Source: a virus
Lineage: Duplodnaviria > Heunggongvirae > Uroviricota > Caudoviricetes
DNA length: 64,000 nt
Reading direction: 5' to 3' (one strand)
IMG/VR virus record: IMGVR_UViG_3300029705_000023
Coordinates: 45,563-109,562 of that record
Shown here: one piece after another, positions 3,782-41,212 of the stretch
Position numbering within the stretch: position 1 is the stretch's first letter
Layout: the number at the start of each line of letters is the position of its first letter
Made by a program: the position numbers and the translations under genes
The notes under the pieces: generated by a model
What the model was told of the DNA's origin: nothing
Database searches by the model: none
The model's input: the letters and a program-made list of their open reading frames with translations, nothing else

Positions 3782-3880
3782 TGCGGAAGTGAACCGCGGT
3801 CGGAACCGCGGCCGCTTCAGCCGGATCCCCGGTTCCGCTTAAAAAGACTTTACAAAAAAGACAAAGAAAAGGAATAAGTT

Positions 3881-4588
3881 ATGAGATCATTTTTGTATCA
3901 GCGCTGGGGCGCTCTGGAAGACGCCTATATGCGGACATTCGGTATCAGCTTCCTGAACGAGGAAGTGGGTACCAGGGAGCCGATTACATTTTGTATCACC
4001 TTCACGGACAAAGCCGTGGAGGAGCTCGAAGACATTGATGAACCGCTGCTCAAGCGATTGACGGACGAGCTGTGCGAGGAGTTCTTTGACAGGCACCGCG
4101 AAGAGATCTTCGAGTACATCGACTGGACGAACGAGGATGATAAATACGCCACGCGGCTGTCGTATATCCTTAACCTGACGGACGCGGATAGTGACACTGT
4201 GTTCGATTTTATTACGAACGGTCCTCATTGCTGCAGGGAGGAACGGCGGGAGATCGCGTCGGCCGTCGTTAAGCACAGCGCCGGAGAGATCCTTAGAGAG
4301 ATCCGGGAATGCCTCGAACAATTCCGGACGGCATCTCTGGAATGCCAGGCGATGGACTATGCAGCAAGAAAGCTGTGTACCGCCGTCAAGGAGAAGTCCG
4401 ACCGGATCGAAGAGCTGGTTGACACCCTGACGGCGGTTCTTTACCCCTGGCTCGGCATTACGCCTGAACGAATCTTCAAGGAACATCTGCAGAAGTACTC
4501 TAAGGGGTATGCGGATGACGGCGACGCGGAACTGGCGTGCCTGGAGTTGCAGGAAAAACTGCGTGATCAGTATAAGAAACTTTCGTAA
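3881..4588 (+). CDS. Hypothetical protein, paralog of 2450-3169
   Basis: AAGGA RBS; colinear similarity to 2450-3169. Confidence 0.85.
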   Translation: MRSFLYQRWGALEDAYMRTFGISFLNEEVGTREPITFCITFTDKAVEELEDIDEPLLKRLTDELCEEFFDRHREEIFEYIDWTNEDDKYATRLSYILNLTDADSDTVFDFITNGPHCCREERREIASAVVKHSAGEILREIRECLEQFRTASLECQAMDYAARKLCTAVKEKSDRIEELVDTLTAVLYPWLGITPERIFKEHLQKYSKGYADDGDAELACLELQEKLRDQYKKLS

Positions 4589-28379: not shown

Positions 28380-29468
28380 ATGTTTGATGTAAAGGAATTT
28401 CAGGATTTTGAGTTGTTTCGGCGGGTGTCGGAACTGTTGTCTTATCGGTCGGAGGTTCAGGATCTGGATCCGATCGCGGCGCAGCTGCATGAGATGTTTT
28501 TTATGGCGGAGTGTGTCGCTTCCGCCCGGATAGAGGGAAATCATACGACCATCACAGATTATCTTTTGAGGGACAGGACCCTAGAGGATACGGACCTGCA
28601 CAAGCAGATCACGAATATTCTCTCCGCGATCCGGTTCGTACAGGATACGGCGGATGTAAGGCTGGACGTAGGCTACATTCGGGAGCTTCATCGGCGGGTG
28701 ACGGAGGGACTTCAGGAGGAAGGGGACAGGAATCCGGGCTGTTTCAGAAGCGCGGAAGTTCGTATTCAGGGCGCGGATGTGTGTCCGCCTTCTGCGGGGG
28801 ATGTACCGGACAGGATCCATCAGCTGGTACAGGAGATCAACGCTCCCTGCGAGCCGCTGGTTTATCTGTTGAAGACGCTTTGGGCGCACCATGCTTTTAC
28901 GGTCATTCATCCGTTTGAGAACGGGAACGGCAGGACAGCCAGGCTCCTGACTTACGCCATGCTTGCGCGGGCGGGGCTGACGACGGTCAACGGCTGGGCG
29001 CTTCATCCGTCGGTGATCTTCAGTTACGACCGGGAAGCGTACTATCATCATCTGACTTTGGCGGACAGGGGAGACATATCCGCGTGGATGAGGTACATGG
29101 CGGACGGGCTGGTCCAGAATATCCGGGGACTGGTGTCTCTGGGCACACAGCAGGAAGTCGCGCGGAAGAATCTGGCTCCGCTTCTGCGGAAACTGGCTCC
29201 GGGAGACTGCGCTCCCATACTGGTATTGGCTCTGTGTGTTCCAGGAGGGATACGTCCGGCGGATGTCAAGAAGATATTGCCGGACTGGTCGGAGTTTGCG
29301 GTCAGCCGAAGGCTTCGTTCTCTGCGGGAGTCCGGATGGCTGAAGCGCGATATTAATAACAGGAGGATCCATCACCTCCAGCTTTTGGGCTGCAAGCCGC
29401 TGCTTCGGGCGATGATGGAGTTCTTTAACCGGAAAGGACTGCTTCTGGACGATCAGGTCATGCGGTGA
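28380..29468 (+). CDS. fic: Class II Fic-domain protein with C-terminal HTH-like domain
   Basis: HPFENGNGRTAR Fic loop; N-terminal SARIEGN inhibitory (S/T)xxxE(G/N) motif. Confidence 0.9.
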   Translation: MFDVKEFQDFELFRRVSELLSYRSEVQDLDPIAAQLHEMFFMAECVASARIEGNHTTITDYLLRDRTLEDTDLHKQITNILSAIRFVQDTADVRLDVGYIRELHRRVTEGLQEEGDRNPGCFRSAEVRIQGADVCPPSAGDVPDRIHQLVQEINAPCEPLVYLLKTLWAHHAFTVIHPFENGNGRTARLLTYAMLARAGLTTVNGWALHPSVIFSYDREAYYHHLTLADRGDISAWMRYMADGLVQNIRGLVSLGTQQEVARKNLAPLLRKLAPGDCAPILVLALCVPGGIRPADVKKILPDWSEFAVSRRLRSLRESGWLKRDINNRRIHHLQLLGCKPLLRAMMEFFNRKGLLLDDQVMR

Positions 29469-30391
29469 ACATGGGCGTAGGTGCCTAATCCTGTGGAAGA
29501 GACTTCGGTTTCTTCTTCCGGACCTTCCGGCGTGACGGTTTCCAGTTTCACGTTGAGTATTTCCTGAATACGGGCAAGCTCGCAGGGGTCGGTAATGGGG
29601 CGGGCATTGAGGATTCCCTGCCGGTGGATATGGTCCAACATTTCTTTCGGGAGTGTTTCGATGTCCGCGCGGGTGAGATCGTCTTCGGTACGGACCGTGA
29701 CGGCGCAGGGACGGTTCAGGAACGTTACCGGGCAGCACAGTCCGGTGTATCCCCGGTCCAGAACCAGTGCAGGGACATCCCAGGTGAGGTCCTTTTCACT
29801 GACTTCCGTTCCGGTCATGGCACTTAGTCCCCGAAACAGTGTTCCTGCGGACGGTCCGTTGACCAGGGCATCCAGCAGAGCATTCAGGAATGCCTTGCTT
29901 TGCTCGCTGGAGGGTGTTTTCAGTCCGAGCAGGTAGCCGAACTGCCGGTAGAGGTCCTCCTTATCGAGCCGGGCATTCTTCAGCCAGACTCTTTTCAGAC
30001 CGGCCGGGACAGAAAACGAGCGTGTATCCGGGTGCAGTTCCCACGATGGGTCGGTAATGCGGTCGGTCACTGCCTCAAAGGAGACGATCTCTTCCGGTAT
30101 CGTGACGCTGACGGTCCCGAGAGCCTGATCAAAGAGTCCGGCTTCATCGAAAACCGCTCCGGAATCCCAGGTCTGGACAGTTTCGGACTCGGCAATATCG
30201 AGCGGATACCAGAATTTCAGCCGATACACATCGATCGTATGTCTTGAGAGCGCATTTTCCAGCTCCCGGACTTCCTGATCGGTCTGTTTCTGGACTTCTG
30301 CCAGCGCGTAAACGAGTTGACGGACAGCCGGAACTTCATTCCAGAAGCCTCCGAGTGCCTGAAAGAGCTGATTTTTCATTGGATCCTCCAT
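29453..30391 (-). CDS. Putative baseplate/tail structural protein
   Basis: Last gene of a coupled minus-strand block; function inferred from context. Confidence 0.5.
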   Translation of the reverse strand: MEDPMKNQLFQALGGFWNEVPAVRQLVYALAEVQKQTDQEVRELENALSRHTIDVYRLKFWYPLDIAESETVQTWDSGAVFDEAGLFDQALGTVSVTIPEEIVSFEAVTDRITDPSWELHPDTRSFSVPAGLKRVWLKNARLDKEDLYRQFGYLLGLKTPSSEQSKAFLNALLDALVNGPSAGTLFRGLSAMTGTEVSEKDLTWDVPALVLDRGYTGLCCPVTFLNRPCAVTVRTEDDLTRADIETLPKEMLDHIHRQGILNARPITDPCELARIQEILNVKLETVTPEGPEEETEVSSTGLGTYAHVHRMT

Positions 30392-31746
30392 GATTTACAG
30401 AGACTGTGGTGCAGATAGACGCCGGTCTGTCCCAGTTCGGTAACAGGGACCGTCAAAGAGCCTGCCAGAGTGCGTCCGGCGAAGAGTTCTCCGGTGAGCT
30501 GATGGTTTTCAACAGCTAAAATAAAAGTCAGTTCCGGCTGCCGGGTACTCAGAGGCAGTGTTTTGGAGCCCAACCGCAGGGTCTCTCCGTCGTAGGAGAA
30601 GAGCGAGAAGCGATCCGGATTCAGGATCCCGTAGACGATACCGCACGTTCCGTCCTGAGAGCGGGTGAACGAGGCGGAAACATAGCTGCCGTGCGTATCC
30701 GTGACAGCGACAGCCGGTTCAATGCTCTCGCTTTGGAGTCCGACGCCGGAAAGATAGCTCAGACCGGTCCCGGTCAGGGGATAGAAGTCCTCCGGGAGCA
30801 CGCCGGGGCGGTTCAGGCGGTAGGGGATGACGTCTTCCGAGGTTTCTTCACAGGGATCCTGCCCGCAGCGTCCGAAATTCATCGGTTCCCGCTCCTGCTT
30901 TTCATCCTGAATGGTGAGCTGGACGCCCTGACAGAGGTTATCCTGACATCTTTCCTTCTCTTCCGTACTTCCGAAGAACTGGAGTGCGGTGTAGGCGTAG
31001 AGATCAGAGGCAGAGGCGTCCGTCACCAGCCGGATCTGGACGTTTCCGGTCTCATCCGGCACAGCGCCTCCCAGTGAAGTGATGCAGTTGCAGTCGCCGT
31101 TCTCAGGACGCTGGTCACATTCTCCCCGGTAAGGTCCTGTCGGGTCTCCGTCTCCGGTGTCGGAGGGGGACAGATGAAAGACCAGCGCCTGTACTTCTTC
31201 CAGACCTTCTCCGGAGATGCCCTGTGCGCGGGTCTCGCCGAGGTAAACCGTCTCTTTTCGTATGGTGACTGCCGTTCCTGCCTCAAAAACGATGTCGCCG
31301 GTCAGACGATGGTTCCGGATGCCGAGGGAGGGGACAGGCCACGGCTTCAGGCGGACGATACAGGAGGGGGAGATTCCGCTTTGAGAGGGGGAATCGAAGC
31401 GCCATTGCCCCTTTTCCTGAGTATGCCCGAACGCGATGACCCCCTGCAGGCTGTCGTGGAAGCATTCCAGCGGGTAATGGGTCAACGGAGCGACCGGCTG
31501 CGGCAGCGCGACGGCTGCTTCGGTACCGAACTGGGAGGCGATGACGACGCTGATCAGGTATTCCGAGCAGGTGACGCCTGAAATGTAGAATATTTTCTCG
31601 TTTTCAGCGGACATCAGCCGAATATCGGTGATCAGCGCGGTCGGGAGCGCGTTTCCGGACAGGTCATAGCCGGAAGCATTGCTGTCCAGCGGGTATTTTA
31701 CTTCTTCATTGCCTGCATACCAGGCTGCATTATAGATTTCCTGCAT
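30376..31746 (-). CDS. Putative tail/baseplate protein
   Basis: ITSLGGAVPDETGNVQI motif, Cys-rich segments, beta-rich C-terminus. Confidence 0.55.
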   Translation of the reverse strand: MQEIYNAAWYAGNEEVKYPLDSNASGYDLSGNALPTALITDIRLMSAENEKIFYISGVTCSEYLISVVIASQFGTEAAVALPQPVAPLTHYPLECFHDSLQGVIAFGHTQEKGQWRFDSPSQSGISPSCIVRLKPWPVPSLGIRNHRLTGDIVFEAGTAVTIRKETVYLGETRAQGISGEGLEEVQALVFHLSPSDTGDGDPTGPYRGECDQRPENGDCNCITSLGGAVPDETGNVQIRLVTDASASDLYAYTALQFFGSTEEKERCQDNLCQGVQLTIQDEKQEREPMNFGRCGQDPCEETSEDVIPYRLNRPGVLPEDFYPLTGTGLSYLSGVGLQSESIEPAVAVTDTHGSYVSASFTRSQDGTCGIVYGILNPDRFSLFSYDGETLRLGSKTLPLSTRQPELTFILAVENHQLTGELFAGRTLAGSLTVPVTELGQTGVYLHHSLCKSWRIQ

Positions 31747-31749
31747 TTT

Positions 31750-33396
31750 TTATGCCTCTTCTTCTCCTTTGCAGGGCCAGTAGCGCTGCTTGATCTCGAA
31801 GATCTTCTTTCGGATGGTCTCTGCGTCTTCTTTTCGGGGTGCCGGGTCCATGATGGAGTCTTCATCGATGACACAGTTCAGGTTTACGGTAGTTTTCTGG
31901 GTACCGGAGAGGTACGGACCGCCCAGCTGCCGGTATTCCAGCGGTATTTCCGAGCCGTGAGCGAAGAAATCGATGTGTCCGGAGTCCAGCGTGAACTGGA
32001 TACGGTAGTTTTCCGAGAATGTTTCCTCTTTATCGTCGAGAATGATCTGGTAGATGCCGTGCCAGTAGACGGTCTCGCCTGCCGGGACGCAGTACCACTC
32101 CATGAACGGGCTGTTTTTGAACCATTTCTCGAAAAGGTCCGGTGTTTTGGTGTCTCCTTCCGCGATCAGGTTCCCGTTTTCGTCCGTCAGGGTGCGATTT
32201 GCCTCCGTGACGGCTTCTCTTTCGTTTGTTTCCTCGTCATAGTGCCCCTGCCAGAGCAGGTAGACTTCGCTGTCGGCAGAAACGTCGCTGAATGTCTTGG
32301 TTCCTTCGGACGCGAAGACTGCTTTCAGCCTCCGGACCAGCTTTTTCTGCTCCGGGTCATAGTGCGTGACCCACTGCGGTACCTGATTTCCCTCAAACTG
32401 GTAGTTGGAGATGATCTGCCGGACGAGTTTCAGGCTTCCTTCTCCTTCCAGTATCTCCGCATGACTGTTTATCTTGATGAAAGAGGCTGCCTGAGAGTGC
32501 AGGTTGGTGATGGCCGCCCGGACTTCGATCAGGGGACAGCTTTGCGCCAGTCCAATGACGCTGGCAGCCGCCGTGCCGGTACAATCGGGGATACTCTGCC
32601 ACAGTTTTACGAGTTTATCGTGCTGTTCCCGCAGCCAGCGTGCTTTTCCGCCTATCTCACGGTAGGCGTCGGCTACCTTATTGAGGTATTCCGCGAAAGC
32701 CGTCATGTCTTCGCAGGTACAGCAGGGTTCATTGGTGTTTGCGAGCTGAAGATGCCCGCATCCGACCGCTAACGTCTGTCCGTTGACAGTAGGCAGGAAG
32801 ACAGCTCCGTCTGCATTGGGCTTTACTCCGTTGATGCTGCGCAGAAGGAACTTTTTTTCGACCTCTTCACAGGGGACCGTGACTTTTCCTGTTCCGGCAC
32901 CGGGTACAGCATCCAGTGTGAGCTGATTCTCGCTGCGGAAGTCTTCTCTGGGAGTGCTTCCGAGCTGGATATTGGTTCCGGCAGCGATCTCTATCCTGCC
33001 GGAATGTCCATTGACCGTGCGGATCCTCGGCGGGACGCAGTAAACGGCTCGCAGGTCCAGAACGGCGTGTTCCGGGAGGAGAACGTCCGGGAAATTCCGC
33101 TGATTATTAATAACCATCTTGACCTGAACCGTAGCGGAAGTCCAGGTATAGAGCGTGTAGGCGCCGAAGGGAAGGATCTCCGCTTCTTCGGAGTCCAGAA
33201 CCGGCTGTCCGCTGCAGGTTTCCAGCCGGAGATGTCCTTTGGGCGTGATGCGGGCTATCCGCAGGGGAAGGTCATACTCAAAGCGCGGATCTTCATGACT
33301 GACGGTCATGTCGGCGATGAGGAACTGAATATCCGGCGACGGATCCACAAGCGGATAGTGGTCGCCGTACTGAATATGAGAAATACCGACCGGCAT
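31750..33396 (-). CDS. Putative tail/baseplate protein
   Basis: GGAGG RBS before ATG33396; IRTVNGHSG and SINGVKPNADG fibre/baseplate-type motifs; PCCTC. Confidence 0.55.
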   Translation of the reverse strand: MPVGISHIQYGDHYPLVDPSPDIQFLIADMTVSHEDPRFEYDLPLRIARITPKGHLRLETCSGQPVLDSEEAEILPFGAYTLYTWTSATVQVKMVINNQRNFPDVLLPEHAVLDLRAVYCVPPRIRTVNGHSGRIEIAAGTNIQLGSTPREDFRSENQLTLDAVPGAGTGKVTVPCEEVEKKFLLRSINGVKPNADGAVFLPTVNGQTLAVGCGHLQLANTNEPCCTCEDMTAFAEYLNKVADAYREIGGKARWLREQHDKLVKLWQSIPDCTGTAAASVIGLAQSCPLIEVRAAITNLHSQAASFIKINSHAEILEGEGSLKLVRQIISNYQFEGNQVPQWVTHYDPEQKKLVRRLKAVFASEGTKTFSDVSADSEVYLLWQGHYDEETNEREAVTEANRTLTDENGNLIAEGDTKTPDLFEKWFKNSPFMEWYCVPAGETVYWHGIYQIILDDKEETFSENYRIQFTLDSGHIDFFAHGSEIPLEYRQLGGPYLSGTQKTTVNLNCVIDEDSIMDPAPRKEDAETIRKKIFEIKQRYWPCKGEEEA

Positions 33397-33489
33397 AAAA
33401 TCCTCCTTTATTTTAGATTCTGAAGATTTTAGCATAATTCTGCATTTTCTGCTTGCTTTCGGAAATGGTTTCTTTATCAGATAAGTAAA

Positions 33490-33605
33490 GAGGTCGAACG
33501 CGGTCTCTCAGGTTAGGCGATGTAAGACCTGCTTCGGCAGGCAGACGCCGTTTGAGCCTGGAAGCGCCCTTGAGGCGCGTGCGGGTCCCAAAAAAGGGAC
33601 CGCCC
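33490..33605 (+). ncRNA. Candidate structured RNA upstream of the array (tracr/scaffold-like or leader)
   Basis: CCTGC-UUCG-GCAGG, GCGCC-CTTGA-GGCGC and GGTCCC-A6-GGGACC hairpins within ~110 nt. Confidence 0.45.
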
Positions 33606-33649
33606 CAATATACTGCGTGACGCAAAGGGTAAAGATACAATATACTGGT

Positions 33650-33982
33650 GTGAAGCCCGCGCGTGAGTTGGGGTTTCCAAGGCTGGTATTCATGAAGAGA
33701 GCCAGAGCGGGTGAAGCCCGCGCGTGAGTTGGGGTTTCTGGATCCGTTTTTCTCTTCCCCCTTTGGTCGAGGTGAAGCCCGCGCGTGAGTTGGGGTTTCT
33801 GTAGAGCCGTGGCCCTCGTCGATACCCTGCGGGTGAAGCCCGCGCGTGAGTTGGGGTTTCTACACCCTTTTTGAAGGACAGCCACGCCAATGTGTGAAGC
33901 CCGCGCGTGAGTTGGGGTTTCTAACCATAAGAGGAAAAGAAAAGTGTAACGAAAGTGAAGCCCGTGCGGGAGTTGGTTTTTT
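33650..33982 (+). CRISPR. CRISPR array: 5 identical 28-nt repeats plus 1 degenerate repeat, 5 unique 33-nt spacers
   Basis: GTGAAGCCCGCGCGTGAGTTGGGGTTTC at 33650, 33711, 33772, 33833, 33894; degenerate copy at 33955; period 61; orientation inferred from the degenerate end. Confidence 0.95.
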
Positions 33983-34200
33983 TGGGGGAAGTGACGCAAG
34001 ACGCGCCGCCTCCCAAATGAAGTCTGTGCCCGGGCCGAGGTCTCCGCTGTCTGCCGTAAGCTGGCGGAGCCAATACGCGGGCATGGTTTCCGTTTTCTTT
34101 CAGTTATCCAGGATCCTCGGATAACTGCCTGAGTCCTGATGGACTGTTTTTTTTGAGAGACATGGCGCGGAAGCGCTTATTTTTTTTAGGAGATGTGACA

Positions 34201-35361
34201 ATGCGCGGTTATCGATTCAAGCTCTATACCAAGGCGAAGGAGCGGAGGCAGCTGTCGGATATGATGTATTTGTGCGGAAAGTACTATAACCGCTGTATCA
34301 GGATCTGCCGGCTTTATTACCGCAGGACCGGCAGGAACATTTTTGTGGACCATAAGCAGTACGCGCTGTCTTATTATTTGACGGAAACCCGGAAACGCGC
34401 GAAGGCGAGGGGGAACGGGAATATTCGGAAGTATGACGCGATACCTCGCGACACCCTGTGTAACATTCACAAGCGCATCCGTCTTTCCTACAATCAGTTT
34501 TTCAGAAACCTGAAGCAGAAGCGCAGAGCGTCGCCTCCGAAGTTCCAGCGTGTTCGCGAGTACGGCACGCTCTTTTTTCAGCCGGGCAAAGGCGCGGCTG
34601 TACTTCCTGACGATCAGATCCGGGTAGGAAAGACAAGGTATCGCTACTTCCGTAATCAGCAGTGGACAGGACAGGTGAAGACGATGACAGTCACACGGGA
34701 CGCCTGCGGTGATTTCTGGGTATCCCTGACGGTAGACGAGACACGGACGGAGCAGATGCCAAACTATGGGCGTTCCGTCGGTTTTGACTTCGGGATCAAG
34801 ACTTTCCTGACAGGCAGTGATGGTTCTTCCTTTGAGGCGCCGCAGTATTTCAGGGAGTCGCTCAAGGAGCTGGCGAAGCTCCAGAAGCAGTTTGCCGGAA
34901 AGGAGCGGAGATCTAATAAGCGGGAGGCAATGAGGCTTAAAATAGCGAGACTTCACCGCAAGATCCGGCATCAGCGGGAGCATTTTCAGTGGGAGCTGAG
35001 TAACCGTCTTTTGGAGAAGTATGATATAATCTGTTTCGAGACGCTGAACCTTCAGGGGATGAGCCGCAGTTTCGGCAGGAAGATCGGCGAATATGCTCTG
35101 TACAGCTTTATTCAGAAGCTGACGTACCTTGCGGAAGCCGCGGGAAAGACCATCATACAGATAGACAGGATGTTCCCGTCTTCGAAACTCTGTTCCTGCT
35201 GCGGGTTTAAGAATACGGAGCTGACATTAAGCGACAGGGAGTGGACCTGCCCGCAGTGCGGCAGAAAGCACGACCGGGACATCAATGCCGCTATTAATAT
35301 ACATAACGAAGGAATGGCCCTTTACCATAATCAGGAGAAAGCATGTCCAAAGACAGAGTAG
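34201..35361 (+). CDS. tnpB: TnpB-family (Cas12f-like) RNA-guided nuclease, ~386 aa, array-adjacent
   Basis: N-terminal YRFKLY HTH; RuvC D (VGFDFG), E (CFETL), D (DRDINAA); CxxC...CxxC Zn ribbon; AGGAG RBS. Confidence 0.92.
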   Translation: MRGYRFKLYTKAKERRQLSDMMYLCGKYYNRCIRICRLYYRRTGRNIFVDHKQYALSYYLTETRKRAKARGNGNIRKYDAIPRDTLCNIHKRIRLSYNQFFRNLKQKRRASPPKFQRVREYGTLFFQPGKGAAVLPDDQIRVGKTRYRYFRNQQWTGQVKTMTVTRDACGDFWVSLTVDETRTEQMPNYGRSVGFDFGIKTFLTGSDGSSFEAPQYFRESLKELAKLQKQFAGKERRSNKREAMRLKIARLHRKIRHQREHFQWELSNRLLEKYDIICFETLNLQGMSRSFGRKIGEYALYSFIQKLTYLAEAAGKTIIQIDRMFPSSKLCSCCGFKNTELTLSDREWTCPQCGRKHDRDINAAINIHNEGMALYHNQEKACPKTE

Positions 35362-36986
35362 AAGAGTATCTCGGAAAGAGAGACTGGCGCATTCAGGAGA
35401 ATGCCAATTCCAATTACTGTTATCAGAGTCTGATCAGCCACGTTGCCGGGGCGGCGATCGCGGAGCATACCCTGGAGAATGTATATCCGAAAGAGATAGC
35501 GGACCTGCATCGGGACGGCAGTATGCACATCCACGACCTTTCCAACGGCATTGTTCCCTACTGTGCGGGCTGGTCGTTCATGGATATTCTCCTGAAGGGT
35601 TTTGAGGGCGGACCGGGACGCTTGAGGAGTGCGCCTGCGAAGCATCTGGATTCCATACTTGCCCAGCTGATGAACTTCCTGATCACATTGCAGGGTGAGT
35701 GGGCGGGAGCGCAGGCGATCAACTCCTTCGATACCTTTCTGGCTCCGTTCGTCCGTGCGGACAACCTGACGTATGAGCAGGTCCGGCAGGATATTCAGCG
35801 GTTCGTGTTCATGCTTAACACCGGAATGCGTCTTGGGCAGGCGAGTTTCACCAACGTAACGCTGGACTGGAACTGTCCGAAGGACCTGAAGGACACGCCG
35901 GTCATTATTGGCGGGGAACCTCACGACGAGTGGACGTATGGGGATTTCCCGGAAGAGATGGCGATGATCAACCGCGCTTTTCTGGAAGTGATGCTTGAAG
36001 GGGACGCCGACGGGCGCATCTTTTCCTTCCCCATCCCGACGTACAGCATGACGCCTGATTTTGACTGGAAGGATGAGAATGCCCGGCTTTTATTTTTAGC
36101 TACGGGCAAGTACGGGCTGCCGTATTTCCAGAATTTCATCAGTTCCGACCGGGACCCCAGTGAAGTGCGCAGCATGTGCTGCCGTCTTCAGCTTTCCCTC
36201 AAGGATCTTCGCCATAAGGGAGGCGGACTGTTCGGCTCCGGCGACAAGACAGGAAGCATTGGCGTAGTGACGCTGAACCTGCCGCGGATCGGGTATCTCG
36301 CGAAGGATAAGGAGGACTTCAGGGCACGGCTGGGATCCCTGCTGGACAGTGCCATGCAGGCTCTGGAACTTAAGCGCGGGGAAGTGTCGAAGAACTTCGA
36401 GAACGGGCTGATGCCTTATTCCAAGATCTACCTTGGTACGCTGGATAATCACTTCCATACCATCGGCACGATCGGGATGCACGAGATGTGCATGAACTTC
36501 CTGGGAAAGGGGATCGAGACAGAAGAAGGACGCGCTTTTGCACTGGAGGTCCTGGAAATGATCCGGGAACGCCTCCAGGAATTTCAGGAAAAAACAGGGC
36601 ACCTGTATAATCTGGAAGGTGTCCCGGGCGAGGGAACTTCGTATCGTCTTGCGAAGGAAGACAGAGACCGGTATCCGGAAATGTACACATCGGGAACGGA
36701 GGTGCCGTACTACACGAATTCCTCTCAGCTTCCGGTCGGCTACACGGATGACTTGTTTGAGGCATTGCGGCATCAGGATGAACTCCAGTGCGCCTATACC
36801 GGCGGAACGGTCTTTCATGCCTATATAGGCGAGCAGGTCGAGGATCCGGAGACAGTGGGCAATCTGGTCCGCAAGGTCTTTGAGCACTTCCGTATGCCGT
36901 ATTTCTCCCTGACGCCGACATTCAGTATTTGTCCCGTGCACGGCTACATCCCGGGTGATCACGAGACGTGTCCTTACGATACCTGA
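35343..36986 (+). CDS. nrdD: Class III anaerobic ribonucleotide reductase, core only (no ATP cone, no glycyl-radical tail)
   Basis: DWRIQENAN, HIHDL, PYCAGWS, RSMCCRL, YTGGTVFH, TPTFSICPVHGY motifs. Confidence 0.9.
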   Translation: MSKDRVEEYLGKRDWRIQENANSNYCYQSLISHVAGAAIAEHTLENVYPKEIADLHRDGSMHIHDLSNGIVPYCAGWSFMDILLKGFEGGPGRLRSAPAKHLDSILAQLMNFLITLQGEWAGAQAINSFDTFLAPFVRADNLTYEQVRQDIQRFVFMLNTGMRLGQASFTNVTLDWNCPKDLKDTPVIIGGEPHDEWTYGDFPEEMAMINRAFLEVMLEGDADGRIFSFPIPTYSMTPDFDWKDENARLLFLATGKYGLPYFQNFISSDRDPSEVRSMCCRLQLSLKDLRHKGGGLFGSGDKTGSIGVVTLNLPRIGYLAKDKEDFRARLGSLLDSAMQALELKRGEVSKNFENGLMPYSKIYLGTLDNHFHTIGTIGMHEMCMNFLGKGIETEEGRAFALEVLEMIRERLQEFQEKTGHLYNLEGVPGEGTSYRLAKEDRDRYPEMYTSGTEVPYYTNSSQLPVGYTDDLFEALRHQDELQCAYTGGTVFHAYIGEQVEDPETVGNLVRKVFEHFRMPYFSLTPTFSICPVHGYIPGDHETCPYDT

Positions 36987-36994
36987 GGTATTCA

Positions 36995-38074
36995 ATGATC
37001 AATTTTCATTTATTGTATAAGGCCGCGCAGGCGGAGCGGATGCTGAAAGAAGCAGGTCCTGCTCCGGGTCCTGCACAGCGGGCAGCGGGTCCTGTGAAGA
37101 ATCCGGCGGCAGTGCCGGCTCCGAGGATGAGCACTCTGGATGTTTTGGCGCGGCAGAACGCCAGACCGACGGCGGCGGGTCCTCCGCCGGGATGGGTCCC
37201 GCCTTCCATGCGAAATATCGGACCCGTACCGGTCCCGCGCAGTCCGCAGGGCGGTCCGGCTCCGAAAAGGGTGTACATTCCGCCTGTGCGTCAGGTTCCT
37301 GGATCTGTTACAGGTCCGGGCCGCAAGTTTGCGGCGCTTATAACAAAGGAGACGGAGGCGCAGAACAGGTATCTACGGGATCCTGCTTCTTTAGTGGAGG
37401 GGACACAGCAGGCAGAAGAGGCGTGGCGGGCTGCAGCAGAGAGGGCACAGCGGGAGTATTATCGGAAGCTGTGGGCGGAGGATAAGAAACTGGATCCGAC
37501 ACGGCCGCGCTGGTATCACGGCACTCCGCAGACCGGCTTGTATCCTGTACCGCGTTCGGAGAGAGCTTATCTGGATCGGACGTTTCCTTCGGGCGGCGGA
37601 TGGACAGGTGAAGGTATCCACGGTACCCACGAGTTTGTGCTGCGTACTACACCGGATGAGCTGCCGTATGCGTTGGGAGTTATAGAGCGGTATTCGAAGC
37701 ATCACGGGGTACGGGTGGCACCCACAACACCGCGGGCTATAAGCGATGGAGCGGAGCAGACAGCGCTCTCGCTGCTTAAGTGGTGTCCGCGTGGCTTTAT
37801 TATGCCTTCTCCTCTCAATACTGGTGCCGTGTGGTCAGGCCCGGGTGATCGCGATATGGACTCGTTTTATAAAGAAGACGACGGCAAGAAGATTGAGCGT
37901 TGGGACGGAACCGCGTACGACTATGGAACACGAAGGCGCAGGGCAGATCAGGCTGACGACGACAATTTTTATAATATAGGGACACCGACCCGGTACTCGG
38001 ATAATGTTAGTCTTGGTGGCAAACAGTGGGAGCCTGTGCGGGGAAATGTCAAGCCTCCGGCGGCTAAGCGGTAG
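36995..38074 (+). CDS. Pro-rich hypothetical protein, possibly virion-internal
   Basis: GAGG RBS; KxA motifs; followed by a terminator at 38079-38107. Confidence 0.7.
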   Translation: MINFHLLYKAAQAERMLKEAGPAPGPAQRAAGPVKNPAAVPAPRMSTLDVLARQNARPTAAGPPPGWVPPSMRNIGPVPVPRSPQGGPAPKRVYIPPVRQVPGSVTGPGRKFAALITKETEAQNRYLRDPASLVEGTQQAEEAWRAAAERAQREYYRKLWAEDKKLDPTRPRWYHGTPQTGLYPVPRSERAYLDRTFPSGGGWTGEGIHGTHEFVLRTTPDELPYALGVIERYSKHHGVRVAPTTPRAISDGAEQTALSLLKWCPRGFIMPSPLNTGAVWSGPGDRDMDSFYKEDDGKKIERWDGTAYDYGTRRRRADQADDDNFYNIGTPTRYSDNVSLGGKQWEPVRGNVKPPAAKR

Positions 38075-39955: not shown

Positions 39956-41212
39956 ATGTTGTATTCTGAATTCGCTAAGAGTTTTAATAAGAAAGCCATT
40001 ATGTACATTCATAATGGCGGATTCCATGCTGATGACGTTCTGGCTGTAGCACTGGTGAAGGCGGTGCTGCCCAGCGTTTGCTGGAAGCGGACCCGGCACG
40101 TCCCGGACGGTGCCTTCGCGGTGGATGTTGGTGGTGGTCCATACGACCACCACTCCGTGCCGCGCCCGCGGTGGGAGGAGTATGACGCCCCGCATTGCGG
40201 GGCATCCCGTTTGTGGGTCGACCCCTTCTTTCAGGAGGTCTTCACTCGCCGGTTCGGCGTCGGACCGGCGGGAAGGCGGTGGATGGAAGAGACCCTCTTC
40301 CTTCCGATTTGTCGGGAGGACAATGGACTGCCCAGCCAGGGCACCAATTTATTGGGTGTAGTCAGGCATATGAACCCTGGCTGGGACGCGGTCCCGGACC
40401 AGGATTTCGAAGATACTTGCTTCGCCGAGGCCGTGGCCTTGGCGGAGAAGGTGCTGGAGGCTTGTATCAATCAAGCTCGGTGCGTCGACAGGGCCCAGTA
40501 CGTCCTGGAGGATATTCCGGACGAGGAGATCGTCCGGATCCCCGCCGGGTTGTCCGGCTGGAAGGACCGTTTGTCCGGTAAGATCACGAAATTCGTGATC
40601 TATCCGGCTTTATCCGGTGGATGGTCGGTGCAAGCCGTACCACCCGCGGCGGACCGGGTGACGGAACAAAAGATTCCGCACCCGGCGTCCTGGCGAGGAC
40701 TTCGCAACGAAGCCCTCTCGGAAGCCTCCGGACTTCCTGGCGGTATATTTTGCCACGCGTCTGGCTTCCTGTCTATCTGGCTGACGGAAGCGGACGCGTG
40801 GCGGGCAGCCCGTTGGATGGTACACAACTCCGGTTCGATTTATGAACCGGAATTGTTTACGGAGGATGCCCTTGCGGATCTTCGGGACGACGACGTCCAG
40901 AAAATTCCCCCGGGACTTAAGGGCTGGGAGCCAATCCTGGCAAACTTCGCGAAGGCGAAGTTCGTGATCGATTGGTATCTTGGCGCCTGGCGGATCCGCG
41001 GTGTACCGTCAAGCCCGGAGCCAGGGGCGCCGGTTAAAGTGCCGTTCCCGAAAGAATGGCACAACAAGATAGAAGGGGAGCTGGTCCGGGAGACCGGTCT
41101 ACCCGCCGCGATAGAGTGTCAAGAGGATTATGCCCTCTGGGGTACGATTCTTGACGCGCTGGATGCCGCGCGCCTGGCGATCAAGTTGTTTGAGGGTGAC
41201 TCGAAAGAGTAA
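39956..41212 (+). CDS. MYG1/UPF0160 (DHH-like) family protein with duplicated C-terminal domain
   Basis: HNGGFHADD, VDVGGGPYDHH and FCHASGF motifs. Confidence 0.8.
   Translation: MLYSEFAKSFNKKAIMYIHNGGFHADDVLAVALVKAVLPSVCWKRTRHVPDGAFAVDVGGGPYDHHSVPRPRWEEYDAPHCGASRLWVDPFFQEVFTRRFGVGPAGRRWMEETLFLPICREDNGLPSQGTNLLGVVRHMNPGWDAVPDQDFEDTCFAEAVALAEKVLEACINQARCVDRAQYVLEDIPDEEIVRIPAGLSGWKDRLSGKITKFVIYPALSGGWSVQAVPPAADRVTEQKIPHPASWRGLRNEALSEASGLPGGIFCHASGFLSIWLTEADAWRAARWMVHNSGSIYEPELFTEDALADLRDDDVQKIPPGLKGWEPILANFAKAKFVIDWYLGAWRIRGVPSSPEPGAPVKVPFPKEWHNKIEGELVRETGLPAAIECQEDYALWGTILDALDAARLAIKLFEGDSKE

Follow-up and report, generated by a model that had tools for sequence, protein, structure and literature searches.

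A tnpB-linked CRISPR array with an upstream omega-RNA-like scaffold in a Caudoviricetes phage: probably a very young, TranC-like miniature type V system

Introduction

Does an array of clustered regularly interspaced short palindromic repeats (CRISPR) that lies beside a tnpB gene in a phage genome serve the encoded nuclease and, if so, through which guide RNA? The question is raised by a locus in a 64,000-nt stretch of DNA (the window, hereafter), bases 45563–109562 of the Caudoviricetes record IMGVR_UViG_3300029705_000023 in IMG/VR, a phage genome of 187,654 bp with an estimated completeness of 94%. At this locus a short array, an intact tnpB and nrdD (anaerobic ribonucleotide reductase) follow one another, an arrangement that an earlier note, made from the letters of the window, had read as a nascent miniature type V system. 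The architecture and the evolution proposed there are supported by the analysis described below, the function being predicted from sequence, whereas the kind of system is not unprecedented, as TranC systems, one of them phage-borne, have been published. The locus probably belongs to this TranC-like kind, as a miniature type V system of very recent origin.

Phage-borne arrays without cas genes are known, and the TranC kind was first described in 2025. TranC systems are nucleases of the TnpB lineage with arrays, in which the guide is a right-end RNA split into a trans-activating CRISPR RNA (tracrRNA) and a CRISPR RNA (crRNA) (bioRxiv 10.64898/2026.03.27.714800). Their sizes are about 300–600 aa (bioRxiv 10.1101/2025.09.28.678669), and CauTranC9, carried in a Caudoviricetes genome, is a phage-borne and TnpB-sized example with 38-bp repeats and phage-targeting spacers (bioRxiv 10.64898/2026.03.27.714800). 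In a survey of TnpB and Cas12 proteins, which described 40 array-linked V-U groups, the array nearly always lay on the downstream side of the effector gene (Altae-Tran et al. 2023, PMC10691335).

Organization of the locus

The central features of the locus, in window coordinates, are the following.

33474–33591, plus strand: scaffold homologous to omega-RNA (also called right-end element RNA, reRNA), a candidate tracrRNA, matched by covariance model R1
33561–33590, plus strand: candidate anti-repeat in the 3' module of the scaffold, complementary to nearly the full length of the repeat
33592–33649, plus strand: leader, a hairpin followed by an A/T-rich stretch with a promoter-like site (from folding and a promoter scan)
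33650–33982, plus strand: CRISPR array of five identical repeats, one degenerate repeat and five spacers
33678–33710, 33739–33771, 33800–33832, 33861–33893 and 33922–33954: the spacers, 33 nt each
33983–34200, plus strand: structured region between array and tnpB, with three terminator-like hairpins (34077, 34132 and 34164) and the tnpB ribosome-binding site
34201–35361, plus strand: tnpB, 386 aa, of the ISDra2-like type, with an intact RuvC triad and a CxxC...CxxC zinc ribbon
35290–35349, plus strand: what may be left of a collapsed native 3' omega-RNA (6.0 bits and E 0.6 in a cmsearch run with filters off, a score without significance by itself)
35343–36986, plus strand: nrdD (Pfam NRDD, 3.1e-160)

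An omega-RNA-like scaffold upstream of the array

The strongest link between the array and TnpB is the scaffold upstream of the array. For its recognition, 59 IS605-type relatives of tnpB were taken from IMG/VR. The segments 3' of tnpB in these relatives match window positions 33505–33563 by blastn (up to 87% identity over 39 nt, E 3e-8) and are unmatched at the 3' end of the window tnpB beyond its coding part. The scaffold of the relatives is about 122 nt long and ends in GAGTATGTCAA, and the similarity among them stops past that tail; RNAalifold gives 27 base pairs for it, 20 of which show compensatory changes. The covariance model R1, built from 27 omega-RNAs, matches 33474–33591 on the plus strand over its full length (cmsearch, 59.7 bits, E 2.4e-13, model positions 1–122 of 122), with no other match in the window or elsewhere in the genome. 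Equivalent matches are placed at the same position in the related phage loci L002, L009, L010 and L014, while in about 54 of the IS605-type relatives the match sits at the 3' end of tnpB.

Stems 1 and 2 are kept in the phage scaffold, as is the conserved GTAAGAC loop, and its last hairpin and guide-adjacent tail (GAGTATGTCAA in the relatives) are replaced and diverged from the IS605 consensus. The sequence past the scaffold forms a hairpin in both phage lineages (see below), wholly different in sequence between them and matching nothing else in the phage, which argues against a conserved fixed guide. With the tail lost and the following sequence differing, the scaffold no longer looks like an omega-RNA with a fixed guide.

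No significant R1 match was found at the 3' end of tnpB or in nrdD, and the upstream scaffold is therefore the only recognisable guide scaffold for TnpB. The absence of room for a 3' omega-RNA had been deduced in the earlier note from the position of the tnpB stop codon in the start region of nrdD; the stop codon (35359–35361) does fall within nrdD, with an overlap of 19 nt, and the covariance match across this junction that the note had named as refuting amounts to 6 bits. The deduction stands as far as the 3' side is concerned, but it had overlooked the scaffold lying 5' of the array. In the putative 3' remnant a gap of 35 nt, instead of 97, separates the 16 model positions at the start from the 9 at the end (GCATGTCCA versus GTATGTCAA), and nrdD may be fused directly to a collapsed transposon end, although 6 bits are weak statistical support for this. 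The nrdD ATG lies inside GCATGTCCA, a motif resembling the IS605 right-end terminus GTATGTCAA. In the IS605 relatives the right end terminates in TCAA, as it does in IS608.

An exact-match scan of IMG/VR for the scaffold core found no copy, and an Rfam search of 32000–37500 gave no match. Among the IS605 relatives, second omega-RNA matches were seen downstream of tnpB in one viral contig (L064:3114–3248 and 3798–3922, 684 nt apart) and upstream of tnpB in another (L072:545–679); such extra matches may represent right ends standing alone or duplicated omega-RNAs. The closest relative without an array (44% identity; L006:262–1838) is a complete IS605 with Y1 tnpA, tnpB and omega-RNA, and the prophage region around it is Mu-like, containing genes for a Mu portal and a Mu protease.

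Pairing of the repeat with the scaffold

The 3' module of the scaffold contains a stretch that could act as an anti-repeat. The repeat forms a duplex with 33561–33590 of −31.8 kcal/mol (RNAduplex), which places this site among the roughly seven best loci per strand in the 187-kb genome, and the 3' end of the repeat pairs just past stem 2. For a second repeat family, found in the L002-type loci, the duplex at the homologous site reaches −35.1 kcal/mol. As judged from sequence, these values are suggestive only, and 33561–33590 is regarded as a candidate anti-repeat.

The region 33983–34200 was considered as an alternative scaffold and rejected: it has no R1 match and no likeness to the regions upstream of tnpB in the relatives, the energy of its pairing with the repeat (−26 kcal/mol) does not stand out, and the L002-type loci lack it. 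It is read as terminators plus the 5' untranslated region of tnpB.

The array and its turnover in related phages

The clean array reported in the earlier note was recovered at 33650–33982. The 28-nt repeat GTGAAGCCCGCGCGTGAGTTGGGGTTTC is identical at 33650, 33711, 33772, 33833 and 33894, and the sixth repeat, at 33955 on the trailer end, is degenerate (5 mismatches); with the 33-nt spacers the period is exactly 61 nt. No further copies of the repeat exist elsewhere in the 187,654-bp genome, and an exact-match search of 185,579 species-representative genomes (GTDB) did not find it as an array, a lone match in a Brachybacterium contig being put down to chance.

In the leader, the hairpin GGGTCCC-A6-GGGACC closes the scaffold in the predicted fold and is followed by a promoter-like site (GTGACG, 18 nt, TATACT; 33617–33646) directly 5' of repeat 1. 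At the equivalent place the L002 leader also folds into a hairpin, one built from another sequence. The −35-like hexamer varies by sub-lineage, from GTGACG in the window (33617–33622) to GTGTTG/TTGCAA in another locus (L009:1850–1860); the word GTGACGCAAG recurs from here immediately past the terminal repeat (around 33991). The promoter-like site, the terminators on the plus strand and the position of the degenerate repeat agree in pointing to transcription of the array on the plus strand.

About 20 related loci from independent samples were fetched, among them variants from the protein collection with 98–99% identity in TnpB and one with 82%. Beyond the 82% variant, the next TnpB relatives in that collection have at most 44% identity, and peptide patterns (P0001; P0001-3 alignment) retrieved no further close relatives from IMG/VR and JGI metagenomes. 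All of the approximately 20 loci keep the same order, namely a 548-aa gene on the minus strand, a non-coding block with the scaffold, the array, tnpB and nrdD, across two repeat families. Thus, the conserved array–tnpB–nrdD arrangement with differing spacers, by which the earlier note had proposed to check its reading, does occur in related phages, and close homologues, instead of never lying beside arrays, all adjoin one (proteins 82–100% identical). The nuclease is in this sense stably linked to an array, whereas none of the 59 IS605-type relatives (at most 44% identity) has an array within 1.5 kb of tnpB. In another viral contig, an IS605 tnpB is followed after 1.3 kb by a repeat with a 48-nt period (L029:4006–4113), probably an ordinary tandem repeat.

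Arrays with the window-type repeat hold 3–6 spacers each, with 12 distinct spacers in total. The spacer proximal to tnpB, at the trailer, is common to almost all of them and those at the opposite end are lineage-specific, a distribution which indicates polarised acquisition at the left-hand leader; together with the degenerate last repeat, this polarity gives the array the direction of the plus strand. One related array equals the window array minus its first spacer, and another has an internal deletion. The 82% lineage (L002–L004) carries the other repeat family in three copies with two spacers, again with a 61-nt period, placed directly against the tnpB start; the 218-nt region that separates the array end (33982) from the tnpB ATG (34201) in the window is absent there. 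Both repeat families end in GGGGTTTC at the spacer side.

The block of tnpB and nrdD (34201–37059) is 80.8% identical to that of L002–L004, against 96–98% for the flanks, and its dS is 0.83–1.0, against 0.07 in the 548-aa gene; nrdD has diverged along with tnpB between the lineages. The region is thus a mosaic, and either the block was exchanged by recombination or it is evolving much faster.

A phage variant present in two sequencing runs (X20 and X8) joins 33500/33501 to 35281 with 37–38 other letters between. It is without most of the scaffold, the array and tnpB, and keeps the last 80 nt of tnpB and nrdD. The joint absence of scaffold, array and tnpB indicates that they were lost as a unit, which counts in favour of the split-guide reading set out below. 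Run X8 holds the full form besides the deletion form, and the letters at the junction are similar to portions of the omega scaffold. The junction was not found in an exact-match scan of IMG/VR and JGI data, and all contigs retrieved by exact match to nrdD carry tnpB, with no tnpB-less locus among them.

A probably domesticated TnpB

The protein encoded about 220 nt past the array (218 nt, in agreement with the earlier note) belongs to the TnpB family by its Pfam matches (OrfB_IS605, 2.5e-20; Cas12f1-like_TNB, 5.8e-22). Its RuvC residues Asp196, Glu280 and Asp360 and the four cysteines of the zinc ribbon (Cys331, Cys334, Cys350 and Cys353) are invariant in three variants and 40 homologues. A phmmer search of the PDB gave ISDra2 TnpB at 1.2e-40 and LaTranC at 1.6e-22. 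The AlphaFold2 model (predicted local distance difference test score 88) has ISDra2 TnpB (8H1J) as its top Foldseek match, with template modelling (TM) scores of 0.78/0.82, followed by ISFba1 TnpB and then by LaTranC (0.68) and Cas12f (about 0.65). The model shows no expansion of REC or WED.

A tree of 115 homologues unites the array-linked proteins in a single clade (Shimodaira–Hasegawa-like approximate likelihood ratio test, 100) with a long stem, and its sister group contains a tnpA-linked IS605 copy. Compared with the 82% variant, the ratio of nonsynonymous to synonymous substitution rates (dN/dS) of tnpB is 0.14 at a dS of 0.83 (nrdD, 0.09), which places the gene under purifying selection. 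From this ratio, the invariant residues and the predicted TnpB fold, TnpB is evidently a functional protein.

The gene is present as a single copy in the 187-kb phage genome, where neither insertion sequence (IS) ends nor a second tnpB copy, the latter with IS ends being a further find named as refuting in the earlier note, were detected. The Pfam models for Cas1, Cas2, Cas4, Cas6e and Y1 TnpA are likewise blank in the whole genome, which for these families extends to the entire phage what had been noted for the window. The fixed position, the single copy and the dN/dS of 0.14 support the domestication of TnpB that had been proposed.

Proposed mechanism

Taken together, we lean towards a domesticated, non-mobile TnpB with a split guide, in which the omega-derived scaffold acts as tracrRNA and the array supplies the crRNAs, in the manner of TranC and type V-U systems; this reading we hold to be somewhat more probable than not. 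The steps set out here, that is transcription, RNA pairing, cleavage and targets, are predicted from the three parts, their homology, their conserved order, the spacer turnover and the selection on tnpB. From the scaffold (33474–33591) a tracrRNA-like RNA would be made on the plus strand, whose stems 1 and 2 would be bound by TnpB, and the array would be transcribed on the same strand from the leader, giving units of a repeat followed by a spacer. The repeat would pair with the 3' module of the scaffold (33561–33590), so that the spacer takes the place of the fixed guide of an omega-RNA, and TnpB would cut matching DNA beside a target-adjacent or protospacer-adjacent motif (TAM/PAM). New spacers would enter at the leader end. 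Given that the phage has neither cas1 nor cas2, they are probably integrated by the Cas1–Cas2 of the host, and the 28 + 33-nt geometry points to an integrase of the type I-E kind. The likely use would be against competing phages or other mobile elements.

A bolder form of this reading is put forward tentatively, as unlikely though worth stating: a chimeric system in which one array serves two unrelated machineries, the type I-E Cas1–Cas2 of the host, which would measure and insert the spacers and so set the 28 + 33-nt geometry, and the phage TnpB, which would use them through a relocated omega-scaffold tracrRNA.

Several observations weigh against a split-guide TnpB. As regards the pairing, composition-matched shuffles give the anti-repeat p values of about 0.03, 0.02, 0.19 and 0.16, and no cognate preference or covariation of a repeat with the module of its own lineage was seen. 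The idea that the repeat is a direct copy of the last scaffold module was discarded, as the alignment score was not significant (p 0.19 and 0.017). The scaffold is 98% identical between the lineages, no higher than the flanks, and thus gives no separate signal of selection. The sole RNA run (metatranscriptome X19, as contigs) covers parts of the flanks and of tnpB and hardly the array, and in the window-type locus three terminator-like hairpins stand between the array and tnpB. The spacers are unmatched in INPHARED phages, PLSDB plasmids and the phage's own genome, and three of them tried by exact match in IMG/VR gave nothing, so the spacer search suggested in the earlier note yielded no target and hence no PAM. 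Finally, the period of exactly 61 nt in both repeat families, the GTG with which the repeat starts and the fold of the L002-type repeats, a short central stem with an 8–9-nt tail, are what we take to be features of type I-E arrays, which normally serve Cascade.

Alternative explanations

These last features belong to the best of the alternatives, that of an orphan mini-array of type I-E character whose crRNAs are used by the Cascade–Cas3 of the host and whose spacers are added by the host Cas1–Cas2, TnpB and the scaffold being IS605 leftovers; TnpB, if active, would then use the scaffold and the adjacent fixed sequence as an ordinary omega-RNA, for instance in homing or retention. We judge this explanation unlikely, though it retains a real share of the probability. 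It accounts for the geometry, for the pyrimidine with which 12 of 13 of the 33-nt spacers begin, for the terminators that separate array and tnpB, and for a polarised acquisition that requires an integrase when none is encoded in the phage. However, the window-type repeat has neither the 6–7-bp central stem of type I-E nor a free 8-nt handle, its predicted stem reaching the last base, and it is nonetheless this repeat that shows most of the spacer turnover; nor was it found by exact match in the 185,579 representative genomes. An ordinary omega-RNA is likewise hard to reconcile with a putative fixed guide that is unconserved between lineages and unmatched in the phage, next to a scaffold without the conserved guide-adjacent tail. 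The omega scaffold sits, moreover, in the leader of the array, and chance adjacency leaves unaccounted for both the joint retention of scaffold, array and tnpB in two diverged lineages and their joint loss in the deletion variant.

That variant, and the collapse of the native 3' omega-RNA, could also be taken as signs of decay, with scaffold and array as relics and TnpB kept for a function unrelated to the array or for its overlap with the nrdD start. Such a remnant is improbable in view of the selection on tnpB, whose dN/dS of 0.14 over a dS of 0.83 is near the 0.09 of nrdD, of the retention of all catalytic residues and of intact scaffold stems 1 and 2, and of repeats that are identical within arrays whose spacers turn over in a polar manner between near-identical phages. 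An active IS200/IS605 element beside the array by chance would suit the typical ISDra2-like protein and is very improbable, since there is no tnpA, a single tnpB copy, no omega-RNA or right end 3' of tnpB, and an identical insertion site in all of the approximately 20 related phages over 18% protein divergence.

Comparison with known systems

The split-guide TnpB proposed here resembles TranC systems (LaTranC, PDB 9JFO and 9JFQ; CauTranC9) in its TnpB-lineage nuclease without domain expansion, its short array and the lack of cas1, cas2 and cas4, and CauTranC9 also in being carried in a Caudoviricetes-type genome. The tracrRNA of TranC is thought to be derived from the right end by splitting, and a similar origin is suggested here by the omega homology (R1, E 2.4e-13). 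The differences are several. ISDra2 TnpB is a much better match to the phage protein than LaTranC is (phmmer 1e-40 against 2e-22; TM score 0.78 against 0.68). The repeats of the phage locus are 28 nt long with 33-nt spacers, in contrast to 32–38 bp in TranC clades 3, 9, 11 and 20; its scaffold and array precede the nuclease gene; and its scaffold still matches the omega-RNA of living IS605 elements significantly and over the full length, the published clades being compared by their description.

Array-only type V-U and Cas12f-like systems share with the phage locus a TnpB-derived effector linked only to a short array (PMC10691335), whereas the phage array is upstream of the effector gene and its protein lacks the REC and WED expansion. 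In the tree of homologues the array-linked TnpBs, whose placement the earlier note had proposed as a check, are one clade, sister to the tnpA-linked IS605 TnpBs. With IS200/IS605 TnpB (ISDra2; PDB 8H1J, 8EXA and 8BF8) the phage protein has in common the fold, size, catalytic triad and zinc ribbon, and with the 44%-identical IS605 relatives that carry Y1 tnpA (L006) the locus shares the omega-RNA family, stems 1 and 2 and the GTAAGAC loop. The phage locus differs from these elements in being without tnpA, in its single copy at a fixed site, in a scaffold placed 5' of the gene with its guide-adjacent tail lost, and in the array between scaffold and gene.

The array itself resembles what we take to be the pattern of Escherichia coli type I-E arrays (61-nt period, 28/29-nt repeat, 32/33-nt spacer, GTG start and acquisition at the leader end), a likeness regarded as a lead. 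In contrast to type I-E systems, the phage has no genes for Cascade, Cas3 or Cas6e and holds an omega scaffold in the leader; the stem and handle missing from the window-type repeat are both roughly present in the L002-type repeats.

Genomic surroundings and distribution

The flanking region of the module includes the following genes.

28380–29468: Fic-domain gene
39956–41212: MYG1-family (UPF0160) exonuclease-like gene

Three minus-strand genes at 29453–33435 have no Pfam match. The stretch was found in public runs from animal faeces and gut metagenomes, in at least 14 studies, and the phage is regarded as one of the gut or rumen.

Implications

The locus offers a natural snapshot of the passage from a transposon guide RNA to CRISPR, with an omega-like candidate tracrRNA and a putatively collapsed native 3' omega-RNA in the same place, and its array gains spacers in wild phage populations without a phage cas1 or cas2. 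One small locus thus bears on two questions, how an array becomes coupled to TnpB and where array-only type V systems obtain their adaptation. If the chimeric arrangement were true, type V would here have arisen from an omega right end beside a pre-existing class 1 array and not by omega duplication, and no younger intermediate of this sort would so far be known, as the tracrRNA of the locus still matches the omega-RNAs of living IS605 elements over the full length. If active, TnpB would be a CRISPR-programmable nuclease of 386 aa with a plain TnpB fold. The split-guide TnpB would also bring to two the cases in which a system of this kind is carried by phages, presumably as a weapon in the rivalry among mobile elements.

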